The notes under the pieces were generated by a model that was not told the origin of the DNA, searched no databases, and saw nothing but the letters and a program-made list of their open reading frames with translations. A stretch of DNA of 64,000 bases, from positions 5,208,001 through 5,272,000 of the forward strand of contig CM075988.1 in the NCBI GenBank assembly GCA_038087875.1. Reading direction: 5' to 3'. Shown here piece after piece: positions 4,058 to 64,000 of this stretch. Origin of the DNA: Malacoraja senta. Lineage: Eukaryota. Made by a program: the position numbers and the translations under genes. Position 1 is the first letter of the stretch. Each line of letters starts with the position of its first letter.

Positions 4058-4257
4058 NNNNNNNNNNNNNNNNNNNNNNNNNNNNNNNNNNNNNNNNNNN
4101 NNNNNNNNNNNNNNNNNNNNNNNNNNNNNNNNNNNNNNNNNNNNNNNNNNNNNNNNNNNNNNNNNNNNNNNNNNNNNNNNNNNNNNNNNNNNNNNNNNNN
4201 NNNNNNNNNNNNNNNNNNNNNNNNNNNNNNNNNNNNNNNNNNNNNNNNNNNNNNNNN
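4058..4257. other. Assembly gap (200 N)
   Basis: Run of 200 N. Confidence 0.99.
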
Positions 4258-8712: not shown

Positions 8713-9045
8713 CAGAGAGAGATACAACATGGAAACAGGCCCTTCGACCCAACTTGCCAACATGTCCCAGCTACATTAGTACCACCTGCCTGTGTTTGAT
8801 CCATATCCCTCCAAACCTGTCCTATCCACGTACCTGTCTAATTGTTTCTTAAATCTTAGGATAATCCCTGCCTCAACTCCCTCCTCTGGCAGCTTGTTCC
8901 ATACACCCAGCACCCTCTGTCTGAAAAAGTAACCCCTCAGATTATTTTCCCCTTCACCTTAAACCTATGTCCTCTTGTCCTCGATTCCCCTACTCTGGGC
9001 AAGAGACTCTGTGCATCTACCCGATCTATTCCTCTCATGATTTTA
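8713..9045 (-). mobile_element. CR1-clade LINE 3' fragment (host of the DIRS insertion)
   Basis: Closely similar to 13465-13815; sequence resumes briefly (TACAC) after the DIRS right end. Confidence 0.8.
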
Positions 9046-12000
9046 CTTCGGAGTCACGTGAGTGACTACGTGAAGAACCCCGCCAGTGCGCCTGCGCGTC
9101 ATTACGTCAGACGCATTAGCGCAAACGGACGCGAGGAGCAGAGCTCCTCTAGTGGAATTGTAGTTTTCAACTACAAGATAAGTATAAACTTTTTTGGAAG
9201 TATTTCCGTGTCCGTTTACTGTGGGTCTGTGGGGATTTTTTCCACAGGCATCATGGAAAAAACGGGCAAGGGGAGGAGGCGAGCGGCACAGCCGATAGAG
9301 AGTCACGAGATTGCGGTCGGCGACCAGCCGCCTCTGACCACAGTACAGTTGCCAGCAGACAGCATAGCGACTGTGGATATTGGGGCTGAAGGGAATTTAG
9401 TCAGCACCAGTGGGGCAAGGCAAAGCCGATAAAAAGCTGCGGGAATGCGGTCGGTAAAGGGCTGCCTCATACCCTACAACAGTCGCCGGCTGGGAGCGGG
9501 GCGAACTGTGGACTTGTGTATTAAAGAAAAGAACGGAGCCAGCGTCAGTTGGGTGCTAGGCAACATACAAGTCAGGGCCATGGAGCAAGAGTCAGTTTGG
9601 GATTCACCTCCAAGGCTGGATACCACTTTCTGAGTGGATATTCCAAATGGAGAACCTGTACACAGGTTGCTCCAACAAAACATACTCCAGGAGGAGTGAT
9701 GTCAGAACCAGGCTCCAGAAGCCAGGTCAGCAGCACCTAGTAAAGGGCTGCTTGATAGCACCCTCATTGATGAGGCGCGTGCACAGGGTCAGCAGAGTTT
9801 CCAAAACAAGCGAAGACGGCAGCTGCCAGATGGGCTATTCCTGGCAGTACGATTTGCTGCTCTGTGAGAGTTCTGACCCTGAGTCTGACGGTGAGGCCGA
9901 TACAAGCGAAGACGGCAGCTGCCAGATGTTTTACTCCTGGCAGTACGATTCGCTGCCCCGTCAGAGTCAGGAGAGCCACTTGGAAAGGAAGTGGCCTCTG
10001 TGATCAACTATTGTGTCTGCCATCAGCTCTAGTAGCTTACGATGGATGAAAATGCCAAAAAAGCACGAGATCCCAAGGAACTGCGTATTGCTGAAAGTAC
10101 TAGCAGTGAACCAAGATATAAGGGGTCAGATGGGCGAAGGCATGTAAGCCTAATGAAAGTAAACTGCAGAGAATATTGAAGCTGCTGGGTTGATGAACAA
10201 CTGCAATTTGCAAAACAATGGATGAAGGCCATGGATGGAGATGCATCAAGTGGCACTAAGGTTGCTATGTAGCGCCCACTTCAAGATGAATTGTTTCAGG
10301 AAGTATGCCATTCGGTCCACCATGAACCCAAACTTGCAGCAACTCTGTAAAAGACCAGCAATGTGCAGTCATTCAACTTATTCTTCAGAGAAAAAAACTC
10401 ATGAATCGTGGGAAAGAGTTGGATAATGAGGCAAAAACAGCAAAGTTGATCACAACATCAATGGTCGTCAAGTCTGCAAAGAGGACGTATCCTTTCAGAC
10501 ATCATACAAAATCCTGGACCGACATCAGGATCAAATCGACCATTGAAGCAGGTACGCAGTTGATGTCCTGCAGCAGGAAAACGAAAAAGCGTGGGTTTTG
10601 CCTGCCAGGAGCCAGAGACCACAGGTCACTCAGATGACACAGGGGGTAGGTGGACCTGGTTCTTATGGGAACCTATTAAGGCAAAAACAGCCAAATATTG
10701 GAAGCAAATTACTTCAATTATTATTCTGAGTATTATAGAGGTTTCGAATTGATTCGATTCAAATACTGGTTTGCCATCCAGCATGTTCCAAGCAGAACAC
10801 TCCAATTTCACATAAAAATAATTGATGGAGGTTCAAGCTGAATTGAAAACTTGTTTAGAAACAAGTAATTGAAAGGTCGGTTTATCAAAACCACCAAATT
10901 GTGTTTAAAATTTCTCAACCTAAAAAGGTGAGGAGTATTTTAGATCTGACAAGTCTTTAAAATTTTGTGACGTATAGACACTTCAAAATGAAGACTTTGA
11001 GACTGCCAAACAATTTATTTCAAAAAATATGTTTTATGGCACTTATAGATCTGAAAGATGTATATTACTTTGGGAAGCCAGAAATGACTTGTTTCCATCC
11101 AGACTCAATCACCAGTTACAGAGATATGTGTTATGGGACTACATCGGGAGACAGTAGCGATGGATGTTTCTCGCTATATTAGGATGGTATGTTGTTATAG
11201 GCATTTTACTTCATCCTGTCTCATAAACCGGTGTCTGCTTAAAATGAAGCAGGATGCTGCCTCTGGGGTATTCGTGGTACCAGACGGGTCTACGCAGCCA
11301 TGGTTCCCTTTGATATTGGAATTTATGACACAGTTTCTGATAAATGTTCCCAAAAGAAGGAAGTTACTCCTGTATTCGATAATTGGAGAGTCACATCCGT
11401 CATATGCCTGTATGGATGCAGGTTTTTAAAAAAGATGATTGTCTGGGCATGCTTACAGCAGTCTGGCGGAAGAGTACTCAAAAGCAGTACATTTGTGAAT
11501 CTGAGTTGTGACTCTGTAAATGCTGCTTTCCCATTATGTAAAGAATGAGGGGAAAAAATTTCTGTGTATAAAAGAATATGGAATGTTGTACGGCACATGT
11601 CTCAAATATCTTGGATTGACCTCTATTTAATGGGTTGAGTTAGTGCGATTTATTCAGACAGAAGTATATTATTCCTTCTTTTTATTGATGAGGTTGGAAA
11701 GACATCCTGTTGAGTTTCGTTCTTTTATTTCCAGATTAATGAAAGGAATTTTAATTCCAGACCTTCTAAACCTAGGATGGAATCTGGAATATAGAGTTGT
11801 TTTAAGCTACTTCATCAATGGAGTCTTGGTACGATTCTGATTTGGCCAAGTTCAGCATGAAGGTAGTCATGTTTATGGCACTTGTAACATTACAAAAGTT
11901 ACAGATACACAGAAGTACCTCAGGATTATGTTATGTTTTACATTTTATGACCTACTCAAATGAACTAGGATCAGGTGTGATAGGATTCAAGAGTGTTTTG

Positions 12001-13036
12001 TTAGCATATTCTATGGATTCATGGATAATGGATTCATTCATGAAAAACCATACAAGATAGTGTCAGTTCAGACTATTTTAAGATGGTTAAAAATAAGTTT
12101 TGGTTGCTGCAGGTGTGAACATTGATGGTTTTACATTCCTTTCAGTTTAGCAGCAACATTGACGACCAGGCCGAAGGACGTCCCGTCGACCATATTTTCA
12201 CAGCCGCCGGGTGATCTAATAAGCTGGTGTTTCAACACTTTTACCATCGGCCTATTGCCAATACGAGGCTGTTTGCAGATACTATATTAAGTTCTGCTTA
12301 AATTTCCCTGGGTTAAAGGGGATACTGTTAATTATTTTATTCAAATAAATGAATTACTGCATTTGTCAGGCAAATGTTATTATTCATGCATTATTGATTA
12401 TTTCTCGTTCCGAGTCAATCAATGCAGCGAGAAGCCGGAAACGAACGATCTTTCCATACATTTATACAAACCATTGCCAGACCGGGGGCATTTGCCAACT
12501 TTATTTTAAGTTCTGTCTATAGTTTCCTCCCGGATGACCGGGGTTACTATTGTTATTATTTGTTCATAAAATGCATCAGCATGTCTATATCTATGTCATG
12601 TCTGAATGCATGATTAATGTTCACTCATCCTAGGTCAATTGATGCAGTGAGTGACGCATGGACTCGTGTCCACGGCATGAAATCACAGAGCTATGAAATC
12701 TTCACGTAGTCACTCACGTGACTCCGAAGTAAAATAGTAAGACTAAACGAGAACTTACCAGTTTGAAGTTTGATCTTTATTTTATGAGGAGTTACGTTGG
12801 TGATTACGTGCCCGCCACGACCCAACCCTCTATCATAAAGGTCAGATGGAAGTTCTTGAATTACTCGTTTTATTATGTTACTATATTACTTCGTTTGTTG
12901 TTTTTTGTGATTTCACACTGCTGCTTTGAAGATTGACGCGCAGGCGCACTGGCGGGGTTCTTCACGTAACGTAACTCCTCATATAACAAAGATCAAACTT
13001 CAAACTGGTAAGTTCTCGTTTAATCTTACTATTTTA
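9040..13036 (+). mobile_element. DIRS1-like tyrosine-recombinase retrotransposon, degenerate and internally deleted
   Basis: ITRs 9067-9101 / 12934-12968; ICR 12700-12798 complementary to both termini. RT remnant VRSILDLTSL*NFVTYRHFKM...FMALIDLKDVYY (~10928-11070); methyltransferase-like remnant LINRCLLKMKQDAASGVFVVPDGSTQPWFPL; YR remnants ISRLMKGI, VSVQTILRWLK and VDHIFTAAG*SNKLVFQHFYHRPI. Confidence 0.93.
12700..12798 (+). repeat. DIRS internal complementary region (ICR)
   Basis: 12700-12735 is the reverse complement of the left end (9040-9075); 12730-12798 is the near reverse complement of the right end (12968-13036). Confidence 0.92.
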
Positions 13037-31724: not shown

Positions 31725-33516
31725 TTTTTTTTTAACAAAAATTATTTAATCAATTATTAATATTTACAGTCCAAAATTAAACGAAACAAAACCCACCACC
31801 ATAATACAGGACAAACAAATATACTAAATAAACTATTATACAACTATATTACAATCCTTATTGAGAATGACTTCCACCCCGCGCGGAGTCCAACAGTCCC
31901 GGAAATCCCGCAGGGCACTCGTGGACAGCGCGTAGTCCCTCTAGAGTACCACCTGGGCGTGGACCTAATGCCGGAAAAGGGGCAGGCAGCCGGATCGGGC
32001 AGAACCCTCTTCCGCCTGGCGCCGTGAGTCACGGATGGCCAGCTTGGCCAGGCCCAGGAGCAACCCAACCAGGACATCTTCAGCCCTACCCTCTCCCCTA
32101 CGCACAGGGTGTCCATAGATGAGGATGGTGGGTGTGAAGTGCAGCCAGAAGGCAAGGAGCAGCCCCTTTAGGTATTGAAACAGTGGCTGCAGCCTCACAC
32201 ACTCCATATATACGTGGAACACAGACTCTTCCAGCCCGCAACCGTGGCATGCGGCTGGCGAGTCTGTGAACCACGAGAGAAACAGGTTGCAGGGAACTCC
32301 TCGGTGCAATACCCTCCACCCCAGGTCCCCGATGTAGAGGGGGAGAATCCCTGCGTAGAGGGACTCCCACTGAGGGGCCCCCTCGGACCGGAAGGCAACA
32401 CCGACCGCCACTTTGTGTGCGGACGGCGGACCAGGAAAAGGAAGTGCAGGGTGTGGAGGAGGAGCCCTTATAGGACACGCCTCCCTTCGTCCGGGAGGGA
32501 GATGAAGGGTGTCGAGGAAAGGCGGCTCAGGTTGTGTGGGACTGGCTCCCGAGAGGGATTACGGCGCTTGGGTCCGACGAGTACTTCTGGCTGAGCGGGG
32601 GTTTGCTCAGCCGCGGGTACTCCACACGTTTGAGCCCCCCCACGACACCCGGACAAGGGCTGGCCGCTCCCATGAGGGGGCCTCGTCGATGGCAATCAGG
32701 TTCCAGACTCTCAACAAGTCCCGGTAAAAGCCGGGCATCCTCTGCAGGACCGCACGGCTGACCCACCATCGGTATCCGCGTACCTCCTTGAAGACAGCGG
32801 CCCTGTTGGAAAAAGCTCGTCGCCAGCACGTGCCACCTGGGAGGATGTCCAGAGTACAGGTATCTCTGCAGGGTCCTGAGGCGGAGAGCCGGCAGTTGGG
32901 TGCGGATGCACACCAGCGACTGACCGCCCTCCTCGATCGGGAGACTTAGGTCCGCTGCAGAGACCCAGTGCTTTCCGTTGCCCCTGAAGATAGTCCACCA
33001 ACTTCTTCTGGATGATCCCAGCAAAGGTGGCCGATGGGACCAGGGTGGTCAACCGGTACCAGAGCCAGCAGTTGGTTAATGACCAAAGCCATGCTCCGGT
33101 AGGAAAGCACTCTGAGGAGACCCGACCAGCGCCCCAGCCGGGGCTCCTGCCAGTGCGCCAGATTGGTCTCTGCAACTGGACTCAGGGAGACGCCCAAGTA
33201 GAAGAGGTGCATGGTGCGCCACGTGAAAGGCCACATCTCCTCTGGTAGTCCACCTGCCAATTTCCCCCTGTTGATCCTAGCAGAGGAAGCGGCAGAGAAG
33301 ACCCGTTGGCACTCGCGCATCCTCTGCAGGTCGACGGGGTCAGTGACCATGAGGAGCACGTCATTAGCATAGGCTGAGAGGACCACCTCCATGTCCGGCT
33401 CACGTAGAACCATGCCCGTCAACCTCCTCCAAAGCAGACTAAGGAATGGCTCCACGCAGATGACGTACAGTTGTCCGGACATGGGGCAGCCCTGATGTAC
33501 TCCTCAGCGGAAGGGA
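31725..33516 (-). mobile_element. 5'-truncated Tx1-clade (L1 group) non-LTR retrotransposon with disrupted ORF2
   Basis: GVHQGCPMSGQLYVICVEPFL...LSAYANDV RT motifs; C-terminal GDLGWRVLH...CHGCGLEESVFHVYMEC zinc knuckle; poly(A) (T run 31725-31733); frameshifts. Confidence 0.88.
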
Positions 33517-34373: not shown

Positions 34374-36521
34374 TCTATATATTACTAAAATTCTCATCTT
34401 GTTTGTTTGTCTGTCTGTGTGCGTGTCTGTGATAGAAACATAGAAACATAGAAACATAGAAAGTAGGTGCGAGAGTAGACCACCAGGCCCATCGAGCCCG
34501 CACCGCCATTCGCTCATGGCTGAACACCAAACAGGCACCCTTACCCACAAACAGTAGACACAAGACACAGAACACAAGACACTACCCTCCCCTTTATATC
34601 GCTATCACCCCTCTCCACCCCAAGAACCGCGTGATCTCCTGGGGGAGGCAAAAAAACGGATAAAAACCCAGGTCCAATTCGGGAAATAAATCCGGGAAAT
34701 TCCTCTCCGACCCCAATCCAGGCGATCGACACTTGTCCAGGAGATCACTCAGGTCTTACTATACTAACCATACCTAGGTCCATATCCCTGCCCTCTCCCC
34801 GTAGCCCCTTATCCCCTTGGCAGCTAAAAAAACATCTATTTTAGACTTAAATATATTTAATATTTCTGCTTCCACTGCTCCCTGGGGCAGTGAATTCCAT
34901 AAATTAACCACCCTCTGGGTGAAGAAGTTCTTCCTCATCTCAGTTTTAAAAGAGCCCCCTCTTATTCTACAACTATGTCCCCTAGTTCTAGTTTCCCCGA
35001 TCATTGGGAACATCCTCGGTGCATCCACCCGATCAAGGCCCCTCACGATCTTATATGTTTCAATGAGATCGCCTCTCATTCTTCTAAACTCCAAAGAGTA
35101 GAGTTCCAGCCTACTTAACCTTTCCTCATATGTCAATCCCCTCATTGCAGGAATTAATCTTGTAAACCTTCGCTGCACTGCCTCCAGGGCCAGTACATCC
35201 TTTCTTAAGTATGGACCCCAGAACTGTACACAGTATTCCAAATGTGGTCTCACTAATACTGTGTACAGCTGCAGCAAGACCTCCGTGTTTTTATACTCAA
35301 TCCCCCTAGCAATAAAGGCCAAAACTCCATTGGCCTTCCTGATTGCTTGCTGCACCTGCATACTAACGTTTAGTGATTCATGTACTACTACCCCTAGATC
35401 CCTTTGCGTTGCATTACAACGCAGCTCCACCTCATTTAGAAAATAACTTGCCCTATCATTTTTTTTCCCAAAGTGAATGACTTCACATTTATTAGTATTA
35501 AATTTCATCTGCCAAGTTGTTGCCCACTCACCTAGCTTATCTATATCCTTTTGCAGACTCTTCCTATCCTCCTCATCCCCTACTTTTCCTCCCATTTTTG
35601 TATCGTCCGCAAATTTTGATATATTACACTTGGTTCCCTCCTCCAAATCATTTATATAAATTGTGAACAACTGGGGTCCCAGCACCGACCCTTGCGGAAC
35701 CCCGCTAGTTACCGGTTGCCATCCCGAGTATGAACCATTTATCCCCACTCTCTGCTTCCTATTTGTTAGCCAATCCTCTACCCATGCTAATATATTACCC
35801 CCAATCCCATAATTTTTTGAGTGTGATCCTGAAATTAAGCCAAAACAATACACGATAGCGCTACAATTTTTGGCCCACTTTACTCACCATTGTCCTGTGG
35901 TGTGTTGCATCAAGTTTCATTCAGAGTGATGGTATATTTTACAAATTATTCACATTTTAAACTTTATAAAAACCACTTTGACAATAAACCTCTTCCGTCT
36001 GCACTGGCGTCTGACGTCACAATGGGATCTCATTTAAATATACTGCCCATCAACAGTACTCCATCCTACAATGACATCACAATGGGATCTCATTTACATT
36101 TAAAAAATTGAATTTAAAAAAACACAGCAGCGTTCCACCTCAAAATGTCGTCAAGGGGGTAGGGAGGTGAGAGGGGTTATGGAGGGAGGGAGCGAGTGAC
36201 AGGGTAGGGTAAAGGAGAGGGAGGGAGAGGTAAGGGAGGGAGGGGAGGAGGTGAGGGGAAAGAAGAGAGAGGGTGAAGAGCAGGGGGATGAAGTGCTGGG
36301 GATGAGGGGGAATGGAGGAGGATAGGGGTAGGAAGAGGAATGGCGAGGCGCACTTGGGGAGGGTCGCAGTGAGTCGAGTCACAAAGGGGATCTCTGGCAT
36401 CACAATGGGAACCTGTCAGCCGCGCCTGTGCAGTTGGGGGCTATGGGTGAGTGGTAGAATATTGCATTCGGGGACCAGCCCTCCCGTGTGATAGGGACCC
36501 AGCGGGTCCCACTTGGTCTAG
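34374..36521 (+). mobile_element. Non-autonomous Helitron interrupted by a CR1 insertion
   Basis: 5' A|TCTATATATTACTAAAA followed by a GTTT/GTCT microsatellite; 3' hairpin GGGACCC-AGC-GGGTCCC (36494-36510) then CTAG|T; no TSD. Confidence 0.82.
34433..35820 (-). mobile_element. 5'-truncated CR1-clade LINE with intact RT/C-terminal ORF
   Basis: ORF 34774..35853 has SGVPQGSVLGP, FADDTK, RPHLEYCVQFW and TRGH without stops; 3' UTR and (TTTCTATG)n tail at 34433-34460. Confidence 0.93.
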
Positions 36522-44004: not shown

Positions 44005-44835
44005 GCCCGAAAGCAAATGCAATGCTAGCATTTATTTCAAGAGGGATTGTATACAAAAACAGGGATGTAATACCAAGTCTCTATGAGGTGCTGGTCAGGC
44101 AGCATTTGGAATATTGTGAGAAATTTTGGGCACTATATCTGAGGAAGGATGTGCTGGCTCTGGGGAGGGTCCAGAGGAGGTTTACAAGAATGATCTCTGG
44201 AATGAGTAGGTTAACCTATGATGAGCATTTGACGGCAGTGGGCCTATATTCGCTGGGGTTTAGAAGAATGAAACGTACAGAATAATGAAAGGCTTGGATG
44301 GAGTGGATGTGGAGAGGATGTATCCACTAGTGGGAGAATCTAGGACTAGAGGTCATAGCCTCAGAATTAAAGGACGTTCTTTTAGGAAGGAGTTGAGGAG
44401 GAATTTCTTTAGTCAGAGGGTGGTGAATCTGTGAAATTCCTTGCCACAGAAGGCTGTCGAGGCAAAGTCAGTGGATATATTTAATGTCTATCAGTGGAGA
44501 TAGATAGATCCTTGATTAGTACTGGTGTCAGAAGCTATGATGAGAAGGCAGGAGAATGGTGTGTTTTTTTCCATACAAAATGCTTTTATTCAGAACAAAC
44601 AAAAATACAAAGTAGTAACACGATCAAAGAATGCCCATATTGGCATTTTTACAAACAAAGTTATCAAATTAAAATATTAACATTTTTATCAACAATACAT
44701 TTGACCTCCCATGGTGACCAGCGTTCAAGGAGAATGGGGTTAGGAGGGAGAGATAGATCAGCCATGATTGAATGGTGGAGTAGACTTGATGGGCAAATGG
44801 CTTAATTCTACTCCTATCACTGATGATCTTATGAT
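44005..44835 (+). mobile_element. CR1-clade LINE 3' fragment
   Basis: ANAMLAFISRGIVYKNRDV...LVRQHLEYCEKFW...VQRRFTRMI. Confidence 0.85.
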
Positions 44836-44844
44836 CATGTTCGA

Positions 44845-45680
44845 CATGAGTCAGAGTATAGAAGAGAGATCGAGCAACTGTCCATATGGTGCCAGCACAA
44901 TAACCTGGCCCTCAACACCAGCAAAACCAAGGAACTGATTGTGGACTTTGGAAGGAGTAGGATGGGGACCCACAGTCCCGTTTATATCAACGGGTCGATG
45001 GTTGAAAGGGTCAAGAGCTTCAAATTCCTGGGCGTGCACATCTCTGAAGATCTTTCCTGGTCCGAGAACACTGATGCCATTATTAAGAAAGCACATCAGC
45101 GCCTCTACTTCCTGAGAAGATTACGGAGAGTCGGTTTGTCAAGGAGGACTCTCTCTAACTTCTACAGGTGCACAGTAGAGAGCATGCTGACCGGTTGCAT
45201 CGTGGCTTGGTTCGGCAACTTGAGCGCCCTGGAGAGGAAAAGACTACAAAAAGTAGTAAACACTGCCCAGTGCATCATCGGCTCTGACCTCCCTTCCATC
45301 GAGGGGATCTACCACAGTCGCTGCCTCAAAAAGGCTGGCAGTATCATCAAGGACCCACACCATCCTGGTCACACACTCATCTCCCTACTACCTTCAGGTA
45401 GAAGGTACAGGAGCCTGAAGACTGCAACGACCAGGCTCAGGAATAGCTACTTCCCCACAGCCATCAGGCTATTAAACCTGGCTCGGACATAACACTGAAC
45501 TTTATTAGCCAATACTGTTATTTACACTTTATCAGTATATTGATTCATGTGTGTATATATTTATAGAATGCCTTGTAGTCAATGCCTACTATGTTCTGTT
45601 GTGCTGAAGCAAAGCAAGAATTTCATTGTCCTATCAGGGACACATGACAATAAACTCACTTGAACTTGAACTTGAACATC
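44845..45680 (+). mobile_element. Rex1/Babar-clade LINE 3' fragment
   Basis: WCQHNNLALNTSKTKELIVDF, FKFLGVHISEDLSW, KKAHQRLYFLRRLR and RYRSLKTATTRLRNSYFPTAIRLLN; (CTTGAA)n tail. Confidence 0.88.
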
Positions 45681-55007: not shown

Positions 55008-58000
55008 AGCCCTGTCTCACGGTGCGAGTTGACCCACGAGGTACCCCGAGCGAAAGACTCGTGGTTGTGCACGAGATTCCAAGTGTATGATCAAGTGTTT
55101 AACCGAGTTCCCACGGGTATGACTCAAGTTTGCCGTTAACTGTCATTTCTGCGATGTTCCAAGTTCGTCTCCCGAGTTAACAAGTTCCTTTCCCGAGTTA
55201 CTCTTGAGCCAACCTGTTTTGTTTGTTTTAATAAGCAACATCTCCATCCTGCGGCTTTGAAGGCTGCATCGATTGATGTGACCAACAAAGGGAAAATGCG
55301 CACCGTCCAGTGCCAGAGCAGTTATACTGATGATTTGTTTGAAACACACATCACGTAGTTAGAAGACCAGCAGGCGGAGGTTTGCTATATTTTAATTGAA
55401 TTTACTGCCAGGTCTACACACTGCGGGGAGACTGGAGATGAAATCTTTGAATGTGCACGGATGTGCACATCAGATTGTTGAGAGAAGGAGCTCAGGGTTC
55501 GCCTCCTGAGCTGCTTTGGTGCCCAGGCGTGAGTTGAGGTGGAGGGAGGTTGGGGGGGGGGGTCAGGTTAAACTCACCCATTTGACAGAGGCAGAGGATT
55601 ACGAGGATCCAGCGAGACTCGGACTACATGGAGAGCCGAGACTGCCCCGCTGGTGGCCAACTTCCCCCTGTCCTCCGTCGCCGCTCCCAGCCAGCCGGCA
55701 GGAGCTGTGCATGGAGCCCGCCACCGGAGTCGTGTCTGACTGCATGGGCAGCCTGAGGCAGATGCACCCTGCCCGGGGAGAGGCAGCGGAGAGACTGCGG
55801 GGGGAGTACCTCACTCTGACTGTAATAGTCAAGTCAAGTCAAGTCAAGTCACATTTATTTATATAGCACATTTAAAAAACAACTCTCATTGGCCAAAGTG
55901 CTTTACATTTGTTATAAGAATAGCACAAACAAAACAAACTACATACATATATACATGTAGCCCTCACTCAGAGGACGTCAGGAAAGGCTTGGGAGTATAG
56001 ATAAGTCTTTAGTCTTGACTTAAAAGAGTCGATGGAGGGGGCAGTTCTGATGGGAAAGGGGATGCAACCGCAAAGGCACGGTCGCCCCTGAGCTTATGCC
56101 TAGACCGTGGGATATTCAGCAACCCCAAGTCGGCCGATCTGAGGGGCCGGGAGGTGGAGTGGTGGGTGAGAAGACTTTTTATGTAGGTGGGGGCAAGCCC
56201 ATTGAAGGCTTTGTAGACATGGTAGAGGATCTTGAAGTTTATACGGAACCGCACAGGGAGCCAGTGGAGAGAGGCCAGGATCGGGGTGATGTGGTCCCTT
56301 TTTTGGGTGCCCGTCAGGAGTCTCGCTGTGGCGTTTTGGACCAGTTGCAGGCGGGACAGGGAAGATTGGCTGATGCCAGTGTAAAGGGAGTTGCAGTAAT
56401 CTAGGCGGGAGGAGATGAATGTGTGGATGATCTTTTCGAGGTCATCAAACTGGAGGAATTGTTATATTTTAGCTATCGTCCGAAGCTGAAAGAAGCTAGC
56501 TTTTACCACAGCATTGACTTGTTTGTCAAATTTCAGTGCTGAGTCAAATATCACGCCACGGTTTTTGACGTGAGGTTTGAGTAGTGGGGTAAGGCTTCCA
56601 AGGCTGCCTGCTATCATTTTGATTGAGTCCGAGGGGCCGAGAAGAATGACCTCAGACTTACTCTCGTTTAGTTGGAGGAAGTTCTGGGCCATCCAACACT
56701 TTATATCCTCGAGGCAGTGGGTAAGGTTAAACAGATTTGATTCGTTTTTGGGCTTCAGGGGGAGATAGAGTTGTGTATTGTCTGCGTAGCAATGGAAGGA
56801 AATGCCGTGCCTTTCAATGACTTGGCCTAAGGGGAGCATATACAGGGAGAAGAGAATGGGGCCAAGGATGGAACCTTGTGGAACCCCACAGCAGAGATTA
56901 GCTGGGGAGGAGAAAGAGTTGCCTATGTTAGTCGAGAAACTCCTACCTTTGAGGTAGATGAACCAGCTCAGGGCAGTGCCATCAATACCAACCCCAGACG
57001 GTCAATTAGGATGGTGTGGTCGACAGTATCAAATGCTGCGCTGAGGTCAAGAAGGAGCAGAATTGCACAGTCGCCGGAGTCAACGGTGAGCAGTAGGTCA
57101 ATTGTGTACCTTCAACAAGGCAGACTCTGTGCTATGGTGGGCCCTGAAACCTGATTGGAAAGTTTCCAAGAGTGTTTTGGTGAAGGTAAGGTTGACTTAA
57201 AATTACCTTTTCAAGGGCTTTTGAGAGGAAAGGCAGTTTAGAAATGGATCTGTAGTTGCTTGGCAAGGTGGGGTCGAGGTTAGGTTTTTTCAGGAGTGGT
57301 TAGACCACCGCATGCTTGAAGCAGGTAGGTACAGTGCCAGTGGCCAGAGGGCTGTTGAAGATGGCGAGGATGCTGGGACCGGCTGTTGTAATGACGTCCT
57401 TTAGGAGGGCAGAGGGGACAGTGTCGAGGGGGCAGGTGGTAGGTTTCATGGTGGTGATGAATTTTACAAGGGAGGGGAGAGTAACGGGTTGGAAACAGTC
57501 TAATTTTGAAGAGCAGACCAATGAGACAGCCAGGTCACGGGTGGGAGGGGAAATATTCGTTCTTATGTTCTTTACCTTGCTGGTGAAAAATGTGGTAAAT
57601 TCCTCGCACTTAGCAGGGGACCCAGTTAGGCCGGTGCTGGTGGCAGGACAGATGATGGAGGTGATGGTGCTAAAGAGGACCTTGGAATTTTGCGCGTTTT
57701 TGGAGATAAGGGTGGAAAAATATTTAGTTCTTGCAGATTTTACGGCTTCCTGGTATTTGTGAAGATTATTTTTCAAGAGTTCAAAGGAAATTTGAAGCTT
57801 TTCAGATTTGTACTTCCGTTCTGATTTTCTGCAATCTCTTCTTAGGGCTCTGGTGGTTTCATTGAGCCACGGCTCGCCTTTAGGCTTAGGCTTTTTCATT
57901 TTAAGAGGAGCAACAGAATCCGGGACGGAAGAGCAGGTATTATTGAATAAAGAAATTAGGTCGTCGGTACTGAGATGAGGGGTGGACGCCTCAATAGTGC

Positions 58001-59453: not shown

Positions 59454-59754
59454 AGCCCCTGTCCCACTTTCCCGAGTTACTCACGAATTCTCCTGAGTTT
59501 TCCCCACGCTTCAAACTCGGAGAATGTCCGTAGCGAGTCCGTAGGCGTCCGTAGATATTTTGTAGCGGCTCGTAATGCCATATCCCTTTACCTGATACCG
59601 GGGCATCAGGTAAGTCGGGATGTTTTTTCAGCATGTTGAAAAATGTCCACGAGTAACAAAAATAGCCCCGGCTATTACCGTAATTCTCCGAGTTTGAATC
59701 AAGGGGAAAACTCGGGAGAATTCATGAGTAACTCGGGAAAGTGGGACTGGGGCT
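59454..59754. mobile_element. PIF/Harbinger-type MITE (301 bp)
   Basis: Long TIRs beginning AGCCCC(T/A)GTCCCACTTTCCCGAGTTACTCA; TTA TSD at 59451-59453 and 59755-59757. Confidence 0.9.
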
Positions 59755-60995
59755 TTAAGACTTAAGACTTTGGAGATACAGCACGGAAACTGGCCCTACT
59801 GCCCGACGGGTCCGCGCTGACCAGCTATCACACCGTACATAGCTGGCCAACTATTACAATTTTTACCGACGCCAATTAACCTGCAAACCTGTACATCTTT
59901 GGAGTGTGGGAGGAAACCGAAACACCCGGGGAAAACCCACATGGTCACGGGGAGAAGGTGCATACTCCATACTGACAGCACCCGGAGTCAGGATTGAACC
60001 CGGGTCTCTGGCACAGTGAGGCAGCAACTCGACCTCTGGGCCATTGTGCCACCCTAAACCTATACCTAAACCTAAACTTCAACCAAAAACATAAAAACGC
60101 CCAAAAGCAAATGCTGGAAATCTTAAAAACATAGACAGGAAAGGATGGAATTCCTCAGCAGAGCGCACAGCACCGGTGGAAAAAATCACAAATAATTCGG
60201 ACCCAAGGTTTTTTGACCTAATTATTAATTCTGTTTCTTGTTCCACAGTTGCTACCTGATCTGCTGAGGACTTCTCCAGTTTTCTGTTTTTACAATCTCT
60301 GGTGCTCAGAGTTTTTTTCCAAACAACTGAATTGGAGGAAATATTTTTAAGATATGAGGAAAAAATATATGAATTAAATTAAGGCACAGAATTAGAACAT
60401 CGGACAAAGCGACAATAGATAGTGTAGACAGTCAGATGCCCTGTATCAGCATGGGAATGTAAGACCAGAAGGCATAAGTTTAATTTAAGAGGGGAAAAGT
60501 TCAAAGGAGAGGTGTGGAGCAAGATGTTTTACACAGAGGATGGTGGGTGCCTGGAACGTGATGCCTGGAGCTGTGGTGGAGGCAGGAACGGTAGTGGCCT
60601 TTCAGAGATATTTGGATTGGCACAAGGACGCAGGGAGTAAAGGGATATGAATCCTGTGTAGGCAGAGGAGGTGAGTGGCACCTGGCTTCATGTTCGGCAA
60701 AGACATTGTGGACCGAAGGGTCTGTTTTTGTGTGGTACTGTTCTGTGTGCTAGTGAAAAATAACTAAGATGGGCTGATGTTCCTCTTTGGTTTTTAATCT
60801 GCAAACACTGAAGAGGTCAGGAAACCTGGTGCAACGCTGTTCCTCATCACTCTCCAGGGAGTGATTCCCTCCCTTGGCCCTTGACAACCCCTCGAAGAAT
60901 TTGCTTCTGGCTGGGCCCGATATGGGCCCCAGTTGAGGATATAGGCTCTACCTGAGACAAACTAACCGATGTAGCATCCCTAATCTCTCAGCATG

Positions 60996-61258
60996 TTTAG
61001 TTTAGTTTAATTTAGAGATACAGCGCGGAAACAGCCCCTTCTGCCCACCGGCGATCCCCGCACACTAACACTATCCTACACACACTAGGGACAATTTACA
61101 TTTATAGCAAGCCAATTAACCTACAAACCCGTACATCTTTGGGGTTGGGAGAAAACTGGAGCACCTGGAGAAAACCCACGCCGGTCATGGGGAAAAGGTA
61201 CGAACTCCGTACAGACAGCACCCGGAGTCAGGATCGAACCCGGGTCTCTAGCGCTGCC
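60996..61258 (-). mobile_element. V-SINE
   Basis: Reverse copy downstream of the repeat-protein ORF. Confidence 0.82.
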
Positions 61259-61780
61259 CAGACAGAAAGTCCCCAACTTGCTTGGGTACAGATTGGTGAG
61301 CACTAGAGACTGTGCTTGGATCCACTGGTCACAGCCCGCACGATTTAGACCAATGTTACACTGTCATTCACCACACCCTTTTCCAAAGCCTGCTACAGGC
61401 AGCAACTTCAATGGGACTGGACTGAGACTTAGTTATTAAGTCTGGATTTTGATGCTGAGTTGGGTAAGTTCTACTCCAAACTGTATGAAAGACGCAAACA
61501 CTCCGATAATTTTTGTAAAATCATTCCATGTTTTGTCACAAGATCATGGAGAAATGAGGAAGGATGCGAACAGGGAAATCATAGCTCAGGGAGATGATAC
61601 AAAGAACAGTATCTACAATATTTCTGAACCATTTTGAACAGAGCTCTGTTCCTTCTCTGCGGTTCCTTGCAACTTCACTTCTGCACAGCACTGCAAAGTC
61701 ATACCCAATCTCTGCATGCGCTGGTAGCTCTGTTCCAACAATGTTCTGACAATTCTGTTCCAAAAATGTTCTGGCTTCGA

Positions 61781-64000
61781 TCATGTCTTGGATCGTGGGA
61801 TGTATTTGCATGTGTCCGAACCGCAATCCTCCTCTACCTGTGAGGCTCTGGGGCAAGTCCCTGAACTACAAGGTCTTGTATTGCCACCGATGGTACATTG
61901 TGTGCAGGTGGCTTCTTTATCATACGATTTGGAGTAGTTTCCAGTGTCATTTGGATTAACACCTCCCACACTACTGAATGTGCTGTTCATGCCAAGACCG
62001 CTGAAGATGCTATCGTTACTTGGTTCGAAAACATTGCTGGTTGTTCCCAGGTCATGTAGCCTTTCAGAAGGTGGGCTGACGATGCTGTCGTCCCAAGACA
62101 GACCAGTGCTATTTAAATCATACGTTGGCTCAATCTCGCTCTCGTCCCAGGATCTGCTAGGGGTATTCTCATCGTAAGGTTCACTGGTCTCATGCCATTC
62201 CCAAATTCTACTGGAAGCGAGCACATCATAAGGTATACTGGAGACGGTCCCTTCATAAAGGGCATTATTGTCGTTGTCGTCCCCAAACTGGCTGGAGGAG
62301 TACCCATCGTAATGCATGATGGAGATGCTGTCATCATAAGGTTCATTGGTGTCATGCCACTCCCATTGTCTACTGGAGGCAAATGTGTCATAAGGCACGA
62401 TGGAGACAGTTGCATCATAAAACGTGTCGGCTTCACCCCTGTCTGTTGACCTGCTGGCGGAGTACTCATCATAATGTATACTGGAGATGTTCTCATCAGA
62501 TGGGCTGCAGATAGGTCCCTCACAATTCTGGCAGGTAGCACTCTCTTCACAAGGACTACTGGCTACGTTCCTTTCATAAAACCTGCCGGTGTCACTCCTA
62601 TCAAAGCACCTGCCCGTGACACATCCATCATCGCAGGTTGTGCTACACGCTTTTCTATCACATGTTCTGCAACTGCTATTTATATTGTTGTCATCGTGAT
62701 AAAGTCTGGGAGTGTCTGCAGTATCGTATGTTCTTCTGCTCTGTCCTGTATTATACTGTCGGCCACTGAAAAGTGATTCATAAGGTCTGCTGCTAAGTGT
62801 TGAATCGTATTGCTGGCTGTTGCGACTTGTTTTATAGATACTGTCTGATTTTGTGTCACAGGTATCATAACACCCATTGCTGACTTCTTTATCATACAGA
62901 CTGCTGGTCGGACAAGTGTCGCAAGGTCGGATGCTACATCCTGTACTGCAGCCGTTGCCGGTGACGTTCATGTCGTTGGCTCGGCACGGCAGATCCAAAT
63001 ATTCGGTGCTGTTGCTGGCAAAAGTGTCGTACAACCTGCTGGCTGGTTCCCAGCCACAGGGAGTCGAGTTCGAAGCAGCTTCTGAAAGTCTGCTATCAAA
63101 TCCCACGTCATTCGTGGTAGTATACCCCACGTCGTAGAATGTGTTGCTGAGATCTGTGTCATTGTGATTGTGCGAGTGTCCATTGTCAAAGGACATACAG
63201 CTGAGACCTGTGTCTTGGTGGCCATATGTGTATCCATCATCAAAGGACTTGCTGCTAAGACATGTGTCGTGGTGATTGTGTGACTGTCCATTATCATAGG
63301 ATTTGCTGTTAAGATCTGTATCGTGGCAGCCGTATGTGTATCCGTTATCATAGGATTTGTTGGTAAGACCTGTATCGTGGTAGCCATACGTGTATCCGTT
63401 ATCATAGGATTTGCTGCTAAGATCTGTGTCATGGTGATTGTGTGAGTGTCCATTGTCAAAGGACATACAGCTGAGATCTGTGTCTTGGTGGCCATATGTG
63501 TATTCATCATCAAAGGACTTGCTGCTAAGACATGTGTCATGGTGATTGTGTGACTGTCCGTTGTCATAGGATTTGCTGTTAAGACCTGTATCGTGGTGGC
63601 TGCATGTGTATCCATTATCATAGGATTTGCTGCTAAGACCTGTGTCATGGTGATTGTGTGAGTGTCCATTGTCAAAGGATTTGCAGCTGAGACCAGTGTC
63701 ATGGTGACCATATGTGTGTCCGTTATCGTAAGACTTGTTGCTAAGCCCTGCATCAAAGAATTTGCTGGAAAGTCCTGTGTCGCGGAGATTTGAGATGGGC
63801 GCCATGTCGTGGGACTTGCTGGAGGAAGAAATATCATAGAGTTTTCGGGAAAGACCTGAGTCATAGAGATTGCTGAAAGTTCCTGTATCGGGGGATCCTG
63901 TCTCACGGAATCTGCTGTTGTGCCCAGTGCGATAGAGGTTGCTGAGATGTCCTGTGTCATTGGATCTTCTGGAATGACCTGTATCGTAGAGATTGCTGAG
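61781..64000 (-). CDS. Large open exon encoding an unrecognised 9-residue-repeat, S/D/T/Y/H/C-rich protein (5' part outside window)
   Basis: Track ORF 61781..63805 (674 aa). The frame stays open for a further 65 codons to the window edge (LSNLYDTGHSRRSNDTGH...SKSHD-MAP). No TE motifs or interspersed repeats over 2.2 kb. An aromatic/His-Asp pair recurs every 9 residues. Confidence 0.8.
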   Translation of the reverse strand, partial: LSNLYDTGHSRRSNDTGHLSNLYRTGHNSRFRETGSPDTGTFSNLYDSGLSRKLYDISSSSKSHDMAPISNLRDTGLSSKFFDAGLSNKSYDNGHTYGHHDTGLSCKSFDNGHSHNHHDTGLSSKSYDNGYTCSHHDTGLNSKSYDNGQSHNHHDTCLSSKSFDDEYTYGHQDTDLSCMSFDNGHSHNHHDTDLSSKSYDNGYTYGYHDTGLTNKSYDNGYTYGCHDTDLNSKSYDNGQSHNHHDTCLSSKSFDDGYTYGHQDTGLSCMSFDNGHSHNHNDTDLSNTFYDVGYTTTNDVGFDSRLSEAASNSTPCGWEPASRLYDTFASNSTEYLDLPCRANDMNVTGNGCSTGCSIRPCDTCPTSSLYDKEVSNGCYDTCDTKSDSIYKTSRNSQQYDSTLSSRPYESLFSGRQYNTGQSRRTYDTADTPRLYHDDNNINSSCRTCDRKACSTTCDDGCVTGRCFDRSDTGRFYERNVASSPCEESATCQNCEGPICSPSDENISSIHYDEYSASRSTDRGEADTFYDATVSIVPYDTFASSRQWEWHDTNEPYDDSISIMHYDGYSSSQFGDDNDNNALYEGTVSSIPYDVLASSRIWEWHETSEPYDENTPSRSWDESEIEPTYDLNSTGLSWDDSIVSPPSERLHDLGTTSNVFEPSNDSIFSGLGMNSTFSSVGGVNPNDTGNYSKSYDKEATCTQCTIGGNTRPCSSGTCPRASQVEEDCGSDTCKYIPRSKT

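Follow-up and report, generated by a model that had tools for sequence, protein, structure and literature searches.

At one end of a 64,000-nucleotide stretch of the genome of the elasmobranch Malacoraja senta (NCBI GenBank assembly GCA_038087875.1, contig CM075988.1, positions 5,208,001 to 5,272,000), hereafter called the window, lies a long minus-strand open reading frame (61781-64000), whose translation repeats every nine residues even where neighbouring units are highly diverged. This raises the question of what kind of protein is encoded here and what it is that has been conserved in it. The frame is likely a real, apparently unnamed elasmobranch coding sequence, and it likely represents the last (or sole) coding exon of an unnamed gene. 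Comparison with a homolog from a shark suggests that the spacing and the backbone pattern of the repeat are conserved, whereas the side-chain chemistry is not. The product of this exon is predicted to be a parallel β-solenoid or β-arcade rod, a reading to which we give a probability of about 0.45.

Coding status and period of the frame

The frame comprises 739 open codons, is open on its 5' side at the window edge and ends with TGA. Its non-tandem portion contributes 449 open codons, compared with a mean of 105 and a maximum of 187 codons for the longest frame in 500 shuffles, and the other five frames carry 6 to 58 stops across the same portion. Among the repeats of the frame, synonymous changes are over-represented: the ratio of non-synonymous to synonymous substitution rates over all pairs of eleven 18-residue units, which are not independent pairs, is 0.34, or 0.51 with a transition bias of 3. 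Furthermore, both Asp columns and the Leu column of these units are invariant, and each of them is encoded by two codons. Two relatives, B and C, differ from the frame in 78 of 2026 bases (plus 24 gap letters) and in 72 of 1951 bases (plus 28 gap letters), respectively. Among the differences listed (61859-62150), B has five synonymous and eight non-synonymous codons and C four synonymous and three non-synonymous ones, with no stop in either; these counts are small and non-independent, because seven changes are common to both relatives.

Four public sequencing runs from three organisms were mapped over 59500-64000. Their flat depth and the very high depth of repeats make them look like genomic DNA, and their read contigs stop 13 to 21 bases beyond the window edge. 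In three runs, the depth of the frame is around 33 to 40, which is the level of the unique flank, and flanking repeats reach depths of up to millions; the exon is single-copy. An open reading frame of a transposable element was considered and rejected, as no reverse transcriptase (RT) or transposase domain was found by Pfam and the depth equals that of the unique flank. The frame is likely to be a giant exon.

The period itself is strong. Among 60 anchors of the type [YFHWC][DE], 37 are followed by the next anchor exactly nine residues on, compared with a mean of 0.6 and a maximum of 4 in 2000 shuffles, and in the diverged residues 293-739, 18 of 35 anchors have another one at exactly +9. Autocorrelation of the protein peaks at 18, 36, 54, 9 and 27 residues. 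Tiling with a learnt profile yields 76 nonamers and 9 slips, and residues 46-288 and 501-644 are free of slips. The actual anchor is the acidic residue at unit position 2 (Asp or Glu in 66 of 76 units); an aromatic residue, His or Cys followed by Asp or Glu opens 51 units, and Gly occupies position 4 in 31 of the 76 units and in 9 of 45 past residue 292. Since the His-rich zone is a young DNA tandem of 54 base pairs (bp), the period without sequence likeness is seen only outside that zone.

These data largely bear out the original prediction, which had been made from the letters of the DNA. It had described a minus-strand frame of at least 739 codons that runs off the window and lacks a transposable-element signature, and both points are confirmed by the open frame, the missing Pfam match and the single-copy depth. 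The proposed parsing into roughly 70 nonamers stands as a periodic tiling, but the proposed form, [YFHWC]-D-x-G-x-S, fits only 10 of the 76 units. The register was said to hold with few short indels, which agrees with the number of slips and with the anchors of the diverged part, and the zoning into His-rich, Cys-rich and acidic Trp/Tyr segments is present as stated.

A shark homolog with the same register

A phmmer search of the frame protein against 1.84 billion cluster representatives, carried out without a length limit, returned 21 matches, for 20 of which names were looked up. The single colinear homolog among them is the hypothetical protein chiPu_0011977 of Chiloscyllium punctatum (GCC33507.1, UniRef100_A0A401SSX4; 435 amino acids), the sole member of its 90% cluster. 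The other 20 matches were discarded, as they cover the repeat zones only and belong to unrelated arrays from mollusc, hagfish, lamprey, krill, sea star, teleost, bacterial and unnamed sources. BLASTP aligns chiPu_0011977 with residues 312-738 of the window protein (3e-26, 28-34% identity); the C-termini of the two proteins coincide, and the alignment follows a gap-free diagonal near the end. The Smith-Waterman score of 378 compares with 61±9 for residue shuffles and with 114±18, at most 181, for 300 shuffles of nine-residue blocks. The similarity therefore exceeds what the shared repeat provides, and chiPu_0011977 is, as judged from the alignments, a true homolog of the frame.

Both proteins share the nine-residue register, an 8-residue slip (residues 676-683 of the window protein) and the matching C-terminus. 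In contrast to the window protein, chiPu_0011977 lacks the His-rich array of 18-mers, is basic instead of acidic (net charge +11; His 1.6%, Tyr 2.8%) and shows Cys or Ser in place of the Tyr of the window protein; 23 of its 46 units have one of these two residues at position 1.

Beyond this pair, the sequence is nearly absent from the sources searched. Word-based protein searches over lengths of 239 to 2245 residues found chiPu_0011977 alone, and no protein containing the whole frame or a match among longer proteins. None of 25 pattern matches in metagenome contigs was confirmed, Pfam gave no family for either protein, and no PDB sequence matched the frame at E≤1. An Atlas feature search returned a top score of 0.75 for the frame, which is a non-result, and no usable feature match for the shark protein. 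The literature covered, which excludes subscription papers and supplementary tables, holds no paper on this protein or on the identifier chiPu_0011977.

Evidence that spacing is what has been kept comes from a profile trained on the window protein only. It divides the shark protein into 46 units, counting 3 slips (or 4 if the profile is altered slightly), and scores 39, compared with -223±12 and a maximum of -189 in 100 shuffles. A single phase is best in all 12 segments tested between shark residues 145 and 343, by a margin of 21 to 46 bits. Shark residues 156-371 form 24 slip-free units with a mutual identity of only 12-19% against a background of 8%; by a crude estimate, these units have undergone 230 to 350 substitutions with no net slip. 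When simulated proteins were tiled, 3 or fewer slips were reported for 0.7% of the runs that contained 10 true indels and for 18% of those that contained 6; the tiler would therefore usually detect 10 or more indels but may overlook 6. The position profile common to both proteins consists of Asp/Asn at position 2, a small residue at 4, Val or another hydrophobic residue at 5, Thr/Ser at 6, Ser at 7, Arg/Lys/Thr at 8 and Pro/Ser at 9. Small residues occupy positions 4, 6 and 7 in both, and Ser is found at position 7 in 21 of 46 shark units and 21 of 45 window units. Units separated by even lags tend to resemble each other more than those at odd lags, with identities of 0.19 vs 0.12 in shark residues 156-371 and 0.52 vs 0.26 in window residues 46-288; this excess is clear in two of five blocks, weak in two and missing in one, and it fits a structure with two faces.

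As the shark protein keeps the register and not the Tyr, His and acidic chemistry, a structural constraint on spacing is favoured over sticker, metal-binding or crosslinking roles. The proposal of selection on spacing, made from the window alone, is thereby strengthened by a second sequence at roughly 30% protein identity, whereas the composition of the shark protein and its position 1 lend no support to aromatic stickers, to metal binding by His/Asp or to crosslinking through Tyr as conserved roles. It had also been stated that the frame cannot be assigned to a known gene, and indeed no named gene, Pfam family or solved relative was found. A search for related proteins yielded chiPu_0011977 as a homolog with an open frame, and a match to the repeat exon of a well-characterised protein, which would have removed the novelty, did not turn up; phmmer gave the one uncharacterised colinear homolog.

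A predicted β-solenoid and its alternatives

How could such a sequence fold? Each nine-residue unit may provide one short strand and one turn or arc, so that two units would make up one 18-residue coil. Asp/Asn at position 2 and Gly/Asn/Ser at position 4 would shape the arc, and the strand would comprise positions 5 to 9 together with position 1; Val/Leu at 5 and Ser at 7 would pack into a thin core, and the outer ladders would consist of Thr/Ser at 6 and Arg/Lys at 8. An insertion whose length is not a multiple of nine would disrupt the stack and be lost through selection, and outer residues could drift. Lineages might thus alter the surface chemistry (Cys/Ser and basic in the shark; Tyr, His and acidic in the window) and change the length by duplicating blocks of 18 or 54 residues. 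The protein would probably serve as a fibre or spacer with a structural function, expressed in a narrow range of tissue. In-register stacking would be the simplest cause of a register that is kept while side chains are free to change, and the repeat has the strict short period and the position-specific pattern expected of β-solenoids.

Known proteins offer analogies for this geometry. The RTX roll with the consensus GGXG(X/D)DXUX is parallel and two-sided, and nonapeptide β-rolls are a precedent for the proposed arrangement (PMC2174480; seen in part). The nonapeptide β-roll of RTX proteins and alkaline protease shares with the window protein the nine-residue period, a fixed Asp and small residues, a likeness of geometry only: the window protein lacks the Gly-Gly-x-Gly turn and a Pfam match, and a relaxed RTX pattern occurs 0 times in it and once in the shark protein. 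Bacterial ice-nucleation repeats are of low complexity, rich in Ser, Thr, Gly and Tyr, and have been modelled as a β-solenoid with Thr and Tyr arrays (excerpts of PMC9418140). The window protein resembles them in being composed of low-complexity tandems rich in the same residues, but their repeat has 16 residues instead of 9 or 18 and no sequence match was found. The AGYGS-type motif, which we take to be typical of ice-nucleation repeats, has a count of 0 in the window and shark proteins. QRICH2, SON and trophinin are vertebrate giant-exon repeat proteins, and Pfam and phmmer revealed no sequence relation between such proteins and the frame. Mucin 22, a predicted solenoid, is likewise encoded by a long single exon with degenerate short-period repeats and is of uncertain fold; its solenoid prediction has itself been doubted (PMC11795689, in the parts available).

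Several observations weigh against the β-solenoid. With two sequences as input, AlphaFold2 did not arrive at a confident fold of the whole frame (28.5 in pLDDT, the predicted score of the local distance difference test), and a self-repeat alignment of nine rows brought residues 501-644 to a pLDDT of no more than 35.6. AlphaFold2 is described as tending towards over-predicted β-solenoids for repeats (PMC11795689); the negative outcome is weakened, because the alignments were shallow. The β-helix interpretation of the shark model comes from a sub-threshold fourth row of the Atlas comparison (DUF2807; template modelling (TM) scores 0.32/0.51), the top three matches being unnamed, and it may serve as a lead only. 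Disorder would fit the low hydropathy (grand average of hydropathy (GRAVY) -1.05 and -0.71) and the 20-22% of units that have Pro at position 9. Residues 289-739 of the window protein contain 8 slips, and all three features speak against a continuous fold; even-lag bias is missing in shark residues 41-148 (0.17 vs 0.19) and weak in window residues 501-644 (0.25 vs 0.21). Zero net slip in the 24 shark units would be unlikely unless indels were rarer than about 1 per 75 substitutions, an argument in which the indel-to-substitution ratios tried are assumptions, and slippage can yield unit-length indels without selection. The homolog is one predicted gene model, possibly truncated at its N-terminus. 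No transcript was seen in the mapped runs, which look like genomic DNA, and no RNA dataset is among the six sequencing runs listed for the sequence, a listing that carries no information on expression. Finally, the frame diverges from relatives B and C by around 4%, which is not clearly less than the flanks (around 3-7%), and constraint at the level of residues is therefore weak.

The only structural support for the solenoid is the Atlas model of the shark protein, which is of low confidence (pLDDT 0.49, predicted TM score 0.36); its match to an unnamed phage protein of 508 amino acids, with a TM score of 0.78 over 421 residues, is a weak lead. DUF2807 has been placed in a right-handed β-helix group (bioRxiv 2020.09.24.301986, seen in part). 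A self-assembly prediction with three copies of residues 501-644 scored 0.00, which is evidence neither way.

The same features could describe a disordered multivalent scaffold or condensate protein, in which each unit would act as a short motif for binding or phosphorylation and valency would depend on the spacing, an explanation that includes the sticker model and that we regard as unlikely, though less so than the alternatives below. Ser, Thr, Asp, Asn and Gly make up 52% of the frame, the frame accounts for the lower of the two GRAVY values, both AlphaFold2 runs ended without a confident fold and change at the residue level is fast. However, the aromatic sticker is not kept in the shark protein, the motif [GS]Y[GS] is found once, and linkers should accept short indels, yet the 24 diverged shark units are slip-free. 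A Tyr-sticker domain of the FUS/TAF15 type was rejected on the single [GS]Y[GS] motif and the low Tyr content of the shark protein. A reading of some units as resembling a β-TrCP degron, by what we take to be its motif, was dropped, as the shark protein lacks that motif.

It is improbable, though less so than the explanations that follow, that the frame belongs to a known vertebrate gene, as the repeat tail encoded by its final giant exon, with conserved domains in exons upstream of the window and a role of the tail as a stalk of variable length. The open 5' side and a depth that hints at more units upstream would suit such a gene, as would the lack of a visible start, signal peptide or splice acceptor within the window and the occurrence of nine-residue Tyr-Asp arrays inside other fish proteins such as P0007 of Lates calcarifer. 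However, phmmer recovered no longer chondrichthyan protein with this sequence from its representatives, the chondrichthyan coverage of these libraries being uncertain, and the word searches gave the shark model alone. In addition, tblastn with P0007 detected no further exon in the 61.7 kilobases (kb) downstream, and the stop lies in a place shared with the shark protein.

The zones of His, Cys, Asp and Tyr in the window protein would suit a secreted matrix protein, be it of the egg capsule, of skin or of mineralised tissue, that is crosslinked through Tyr or binds metal or mineral and acts via its side chains; we consider this quite improbable, as the shark protein does not keep these zones. 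N-glycosylation sequons occur at chance level (14 vs 13.3±3.1), neither sequence contains a hydrophobic segment, although the true N-terminus may be missing from both, and a run of collagen triplets is absent from the frame, collagen being the main component of the egg capsule (PMC10230700, seen in part). The His array may have a lineage-specific add-on role. That the frame has no function and is what remains of an old 27-bp minisatellite, open by chance, or else is a recent pseudogene, is very improbable: the near-absence of annotation in the libraries searched, the flank-like DNA divergence and the neighbouring codons of the position-1 residues (Y, C, F, S, W, H and N) would agree with it, but not the length of the open non-tandem portion beside five closed frames, the excess of synonymous changes or two lineages that stay open to the same end.

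Nine-residue arrays also occur in unrelated proteins. P0007 (A0A4W6CRV6, unnamed in the database), which we take to be a collagen XVII, has a unit of Tyr-Asp-Thr-Gly-hydrophobic and an 18-residue alternation and aligns by BLASTP with 30% identity over 168 residues. The match is limited to the repeats, the unrelated arrays P0006 and P0003 fit the unit profile better, and the array of P0007 is judged to be convergent with that of the window. Collagen XVII (COL17A1) itself was rejected as the source of the frame, whose stop matches the C-terminus of the shark protein; the 61.7 kb downstream contain no notable tblastn match and one chance Gly-X-Y run. Teleost P0007 and P0014 both carry nine-residue Tyr-Asp arrays with 18-residue alternation, presumably within the intracellular domain of collagen XVII, and these may be of independent origin in fish. 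P0006, an unnamed and probably bacterial protein of 799 amino acids, opens with a sequence resembling a signal peptide, continues with nine-residue units of Tyr-Asp-Thr-Gly and is the best fit to the window unit profile among the unrelated matches. For human collagen XVII, the passages seen describe four tandem repeats and a disordered intracellular domain and contain no such nine-residue array (PMC8623354).

Returning to the β-solenoid, it is tempting to speculate, though the extended proposal is doubtful, that elasmobranchs possess a family of metal-independent, two-sided nonamer β-rolls: a single-chain rod of at least 40 coils (a length of at least around 19 nm) that would carry a conserved cap at its C-terminus and polymerise into a fibre, and whose ladders (Tyr, His, Cys, acidic or basic) and length would be re-tuned in each lineage via duplications of 18 or 54 residues. 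If true, gene annotation would have overlooked a new class of structural protein in vertebrates, and a β-roll fibre of this kind would be a new vertebrate biomaterial scaffold with a tunable surface; if the protein is disordered, it would be one more lineage-restricted low-complexity protein of modest interest. As it stands, the frame encodes a short-period tandem-repeat protein, which is a known kind and not yet a new mechanism. It appears to be a real gene kept from the shark to the window species, and it is represented in the databases searched by one model and no family. The fold of vertebrate giant-exon repeats, solenoid or disorder, is disputed, and the two sequences provide a natural test of selection on register instead of sequence in such proteins.

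Zones of the protein and other features of the window

The protein, read from its open end, starts with Arg/Ser-rich nonamers (residues 1-75; 63776..64000, minus strand, as are all zones), delimited by composition and tiling. The top 120 bases of the window, on the 5' side of the frame, have 3 to 6 times the single-copy depth, and similar units therefore likely extend upstream of the window. The His-rich array follows, with eleven 18-residue (2x9) units (residues 91-288; 63137..63730) encoded by a young 54-bp tandem of 11.2 copies with 73% matches; the His content is 12% in residues 76-292, and the array lies outside the region colinear with the shark model, which covers residues 312-738 (61787..63067). 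Composition and tiling further define a zone of Cys-rich diverged nonamers with several register slips (residues 293-500; 62501..63124; Cys 8.7%) and an acidic Tyr/Trp zone (residues 501-660; 62021..62500) with a net charge of -29 and 3.8% Trp. In the latter, residues 501-644 form 16 units without a slip, and residues 528-581 and 582-635 represent an old duplication of 54 residues. The C-terminal block (residues 661-739; 61784..62020), which is Cys-rich and lies on the gap-free diagonal with the shark protein, is the best conserved and a candidate cap.

Downstream of the frame, depth delimits a single-copy 3' flank (61312..61780, minus strand), possibly a 3' untranslated region, which is bounded by a high-copy interspersed repeat below around 61311. 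The nearest ATTAAA sites 3' of the frame lie at 61011, 60798 and 60484, and there is no AATAAA until 55859.

In the rest of the window, the only matches above the cut-off in Pfam scans, which covered 143 long exon-like frames and 50 of 67 short ones, were of the RT/long interspersed nuclear element (LINE) type, and a scan for splice sites yielded nothing recognisable; no host gene was found that would allow synteny to be assessed. LINE reverse transcriptase fragments are located at 32949-33503, 34777-35883 and 56465-57001 on the minus strand and at 44827-45489 on the plus strand, three of which match RVT_1 above the cut-off and the fourth an ALKBH8_N-type domain. A segment of around 3.7 kb (9040-12735) lies between inverted repeats of around 37 bp (near 9043-9078 and 12697-12733) and has no long intact frame; it looks like a decayed element of the DIRS type. 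The assembly contains a gap of 200 N at 4058-4257. On the minus strand, a GC-rich unique stretch at 55578-55810 ends in a strong splice-donor-like site at 55578 and may represent an exon, either the first or a non-coding one, that belongs to an unrecognised gene.

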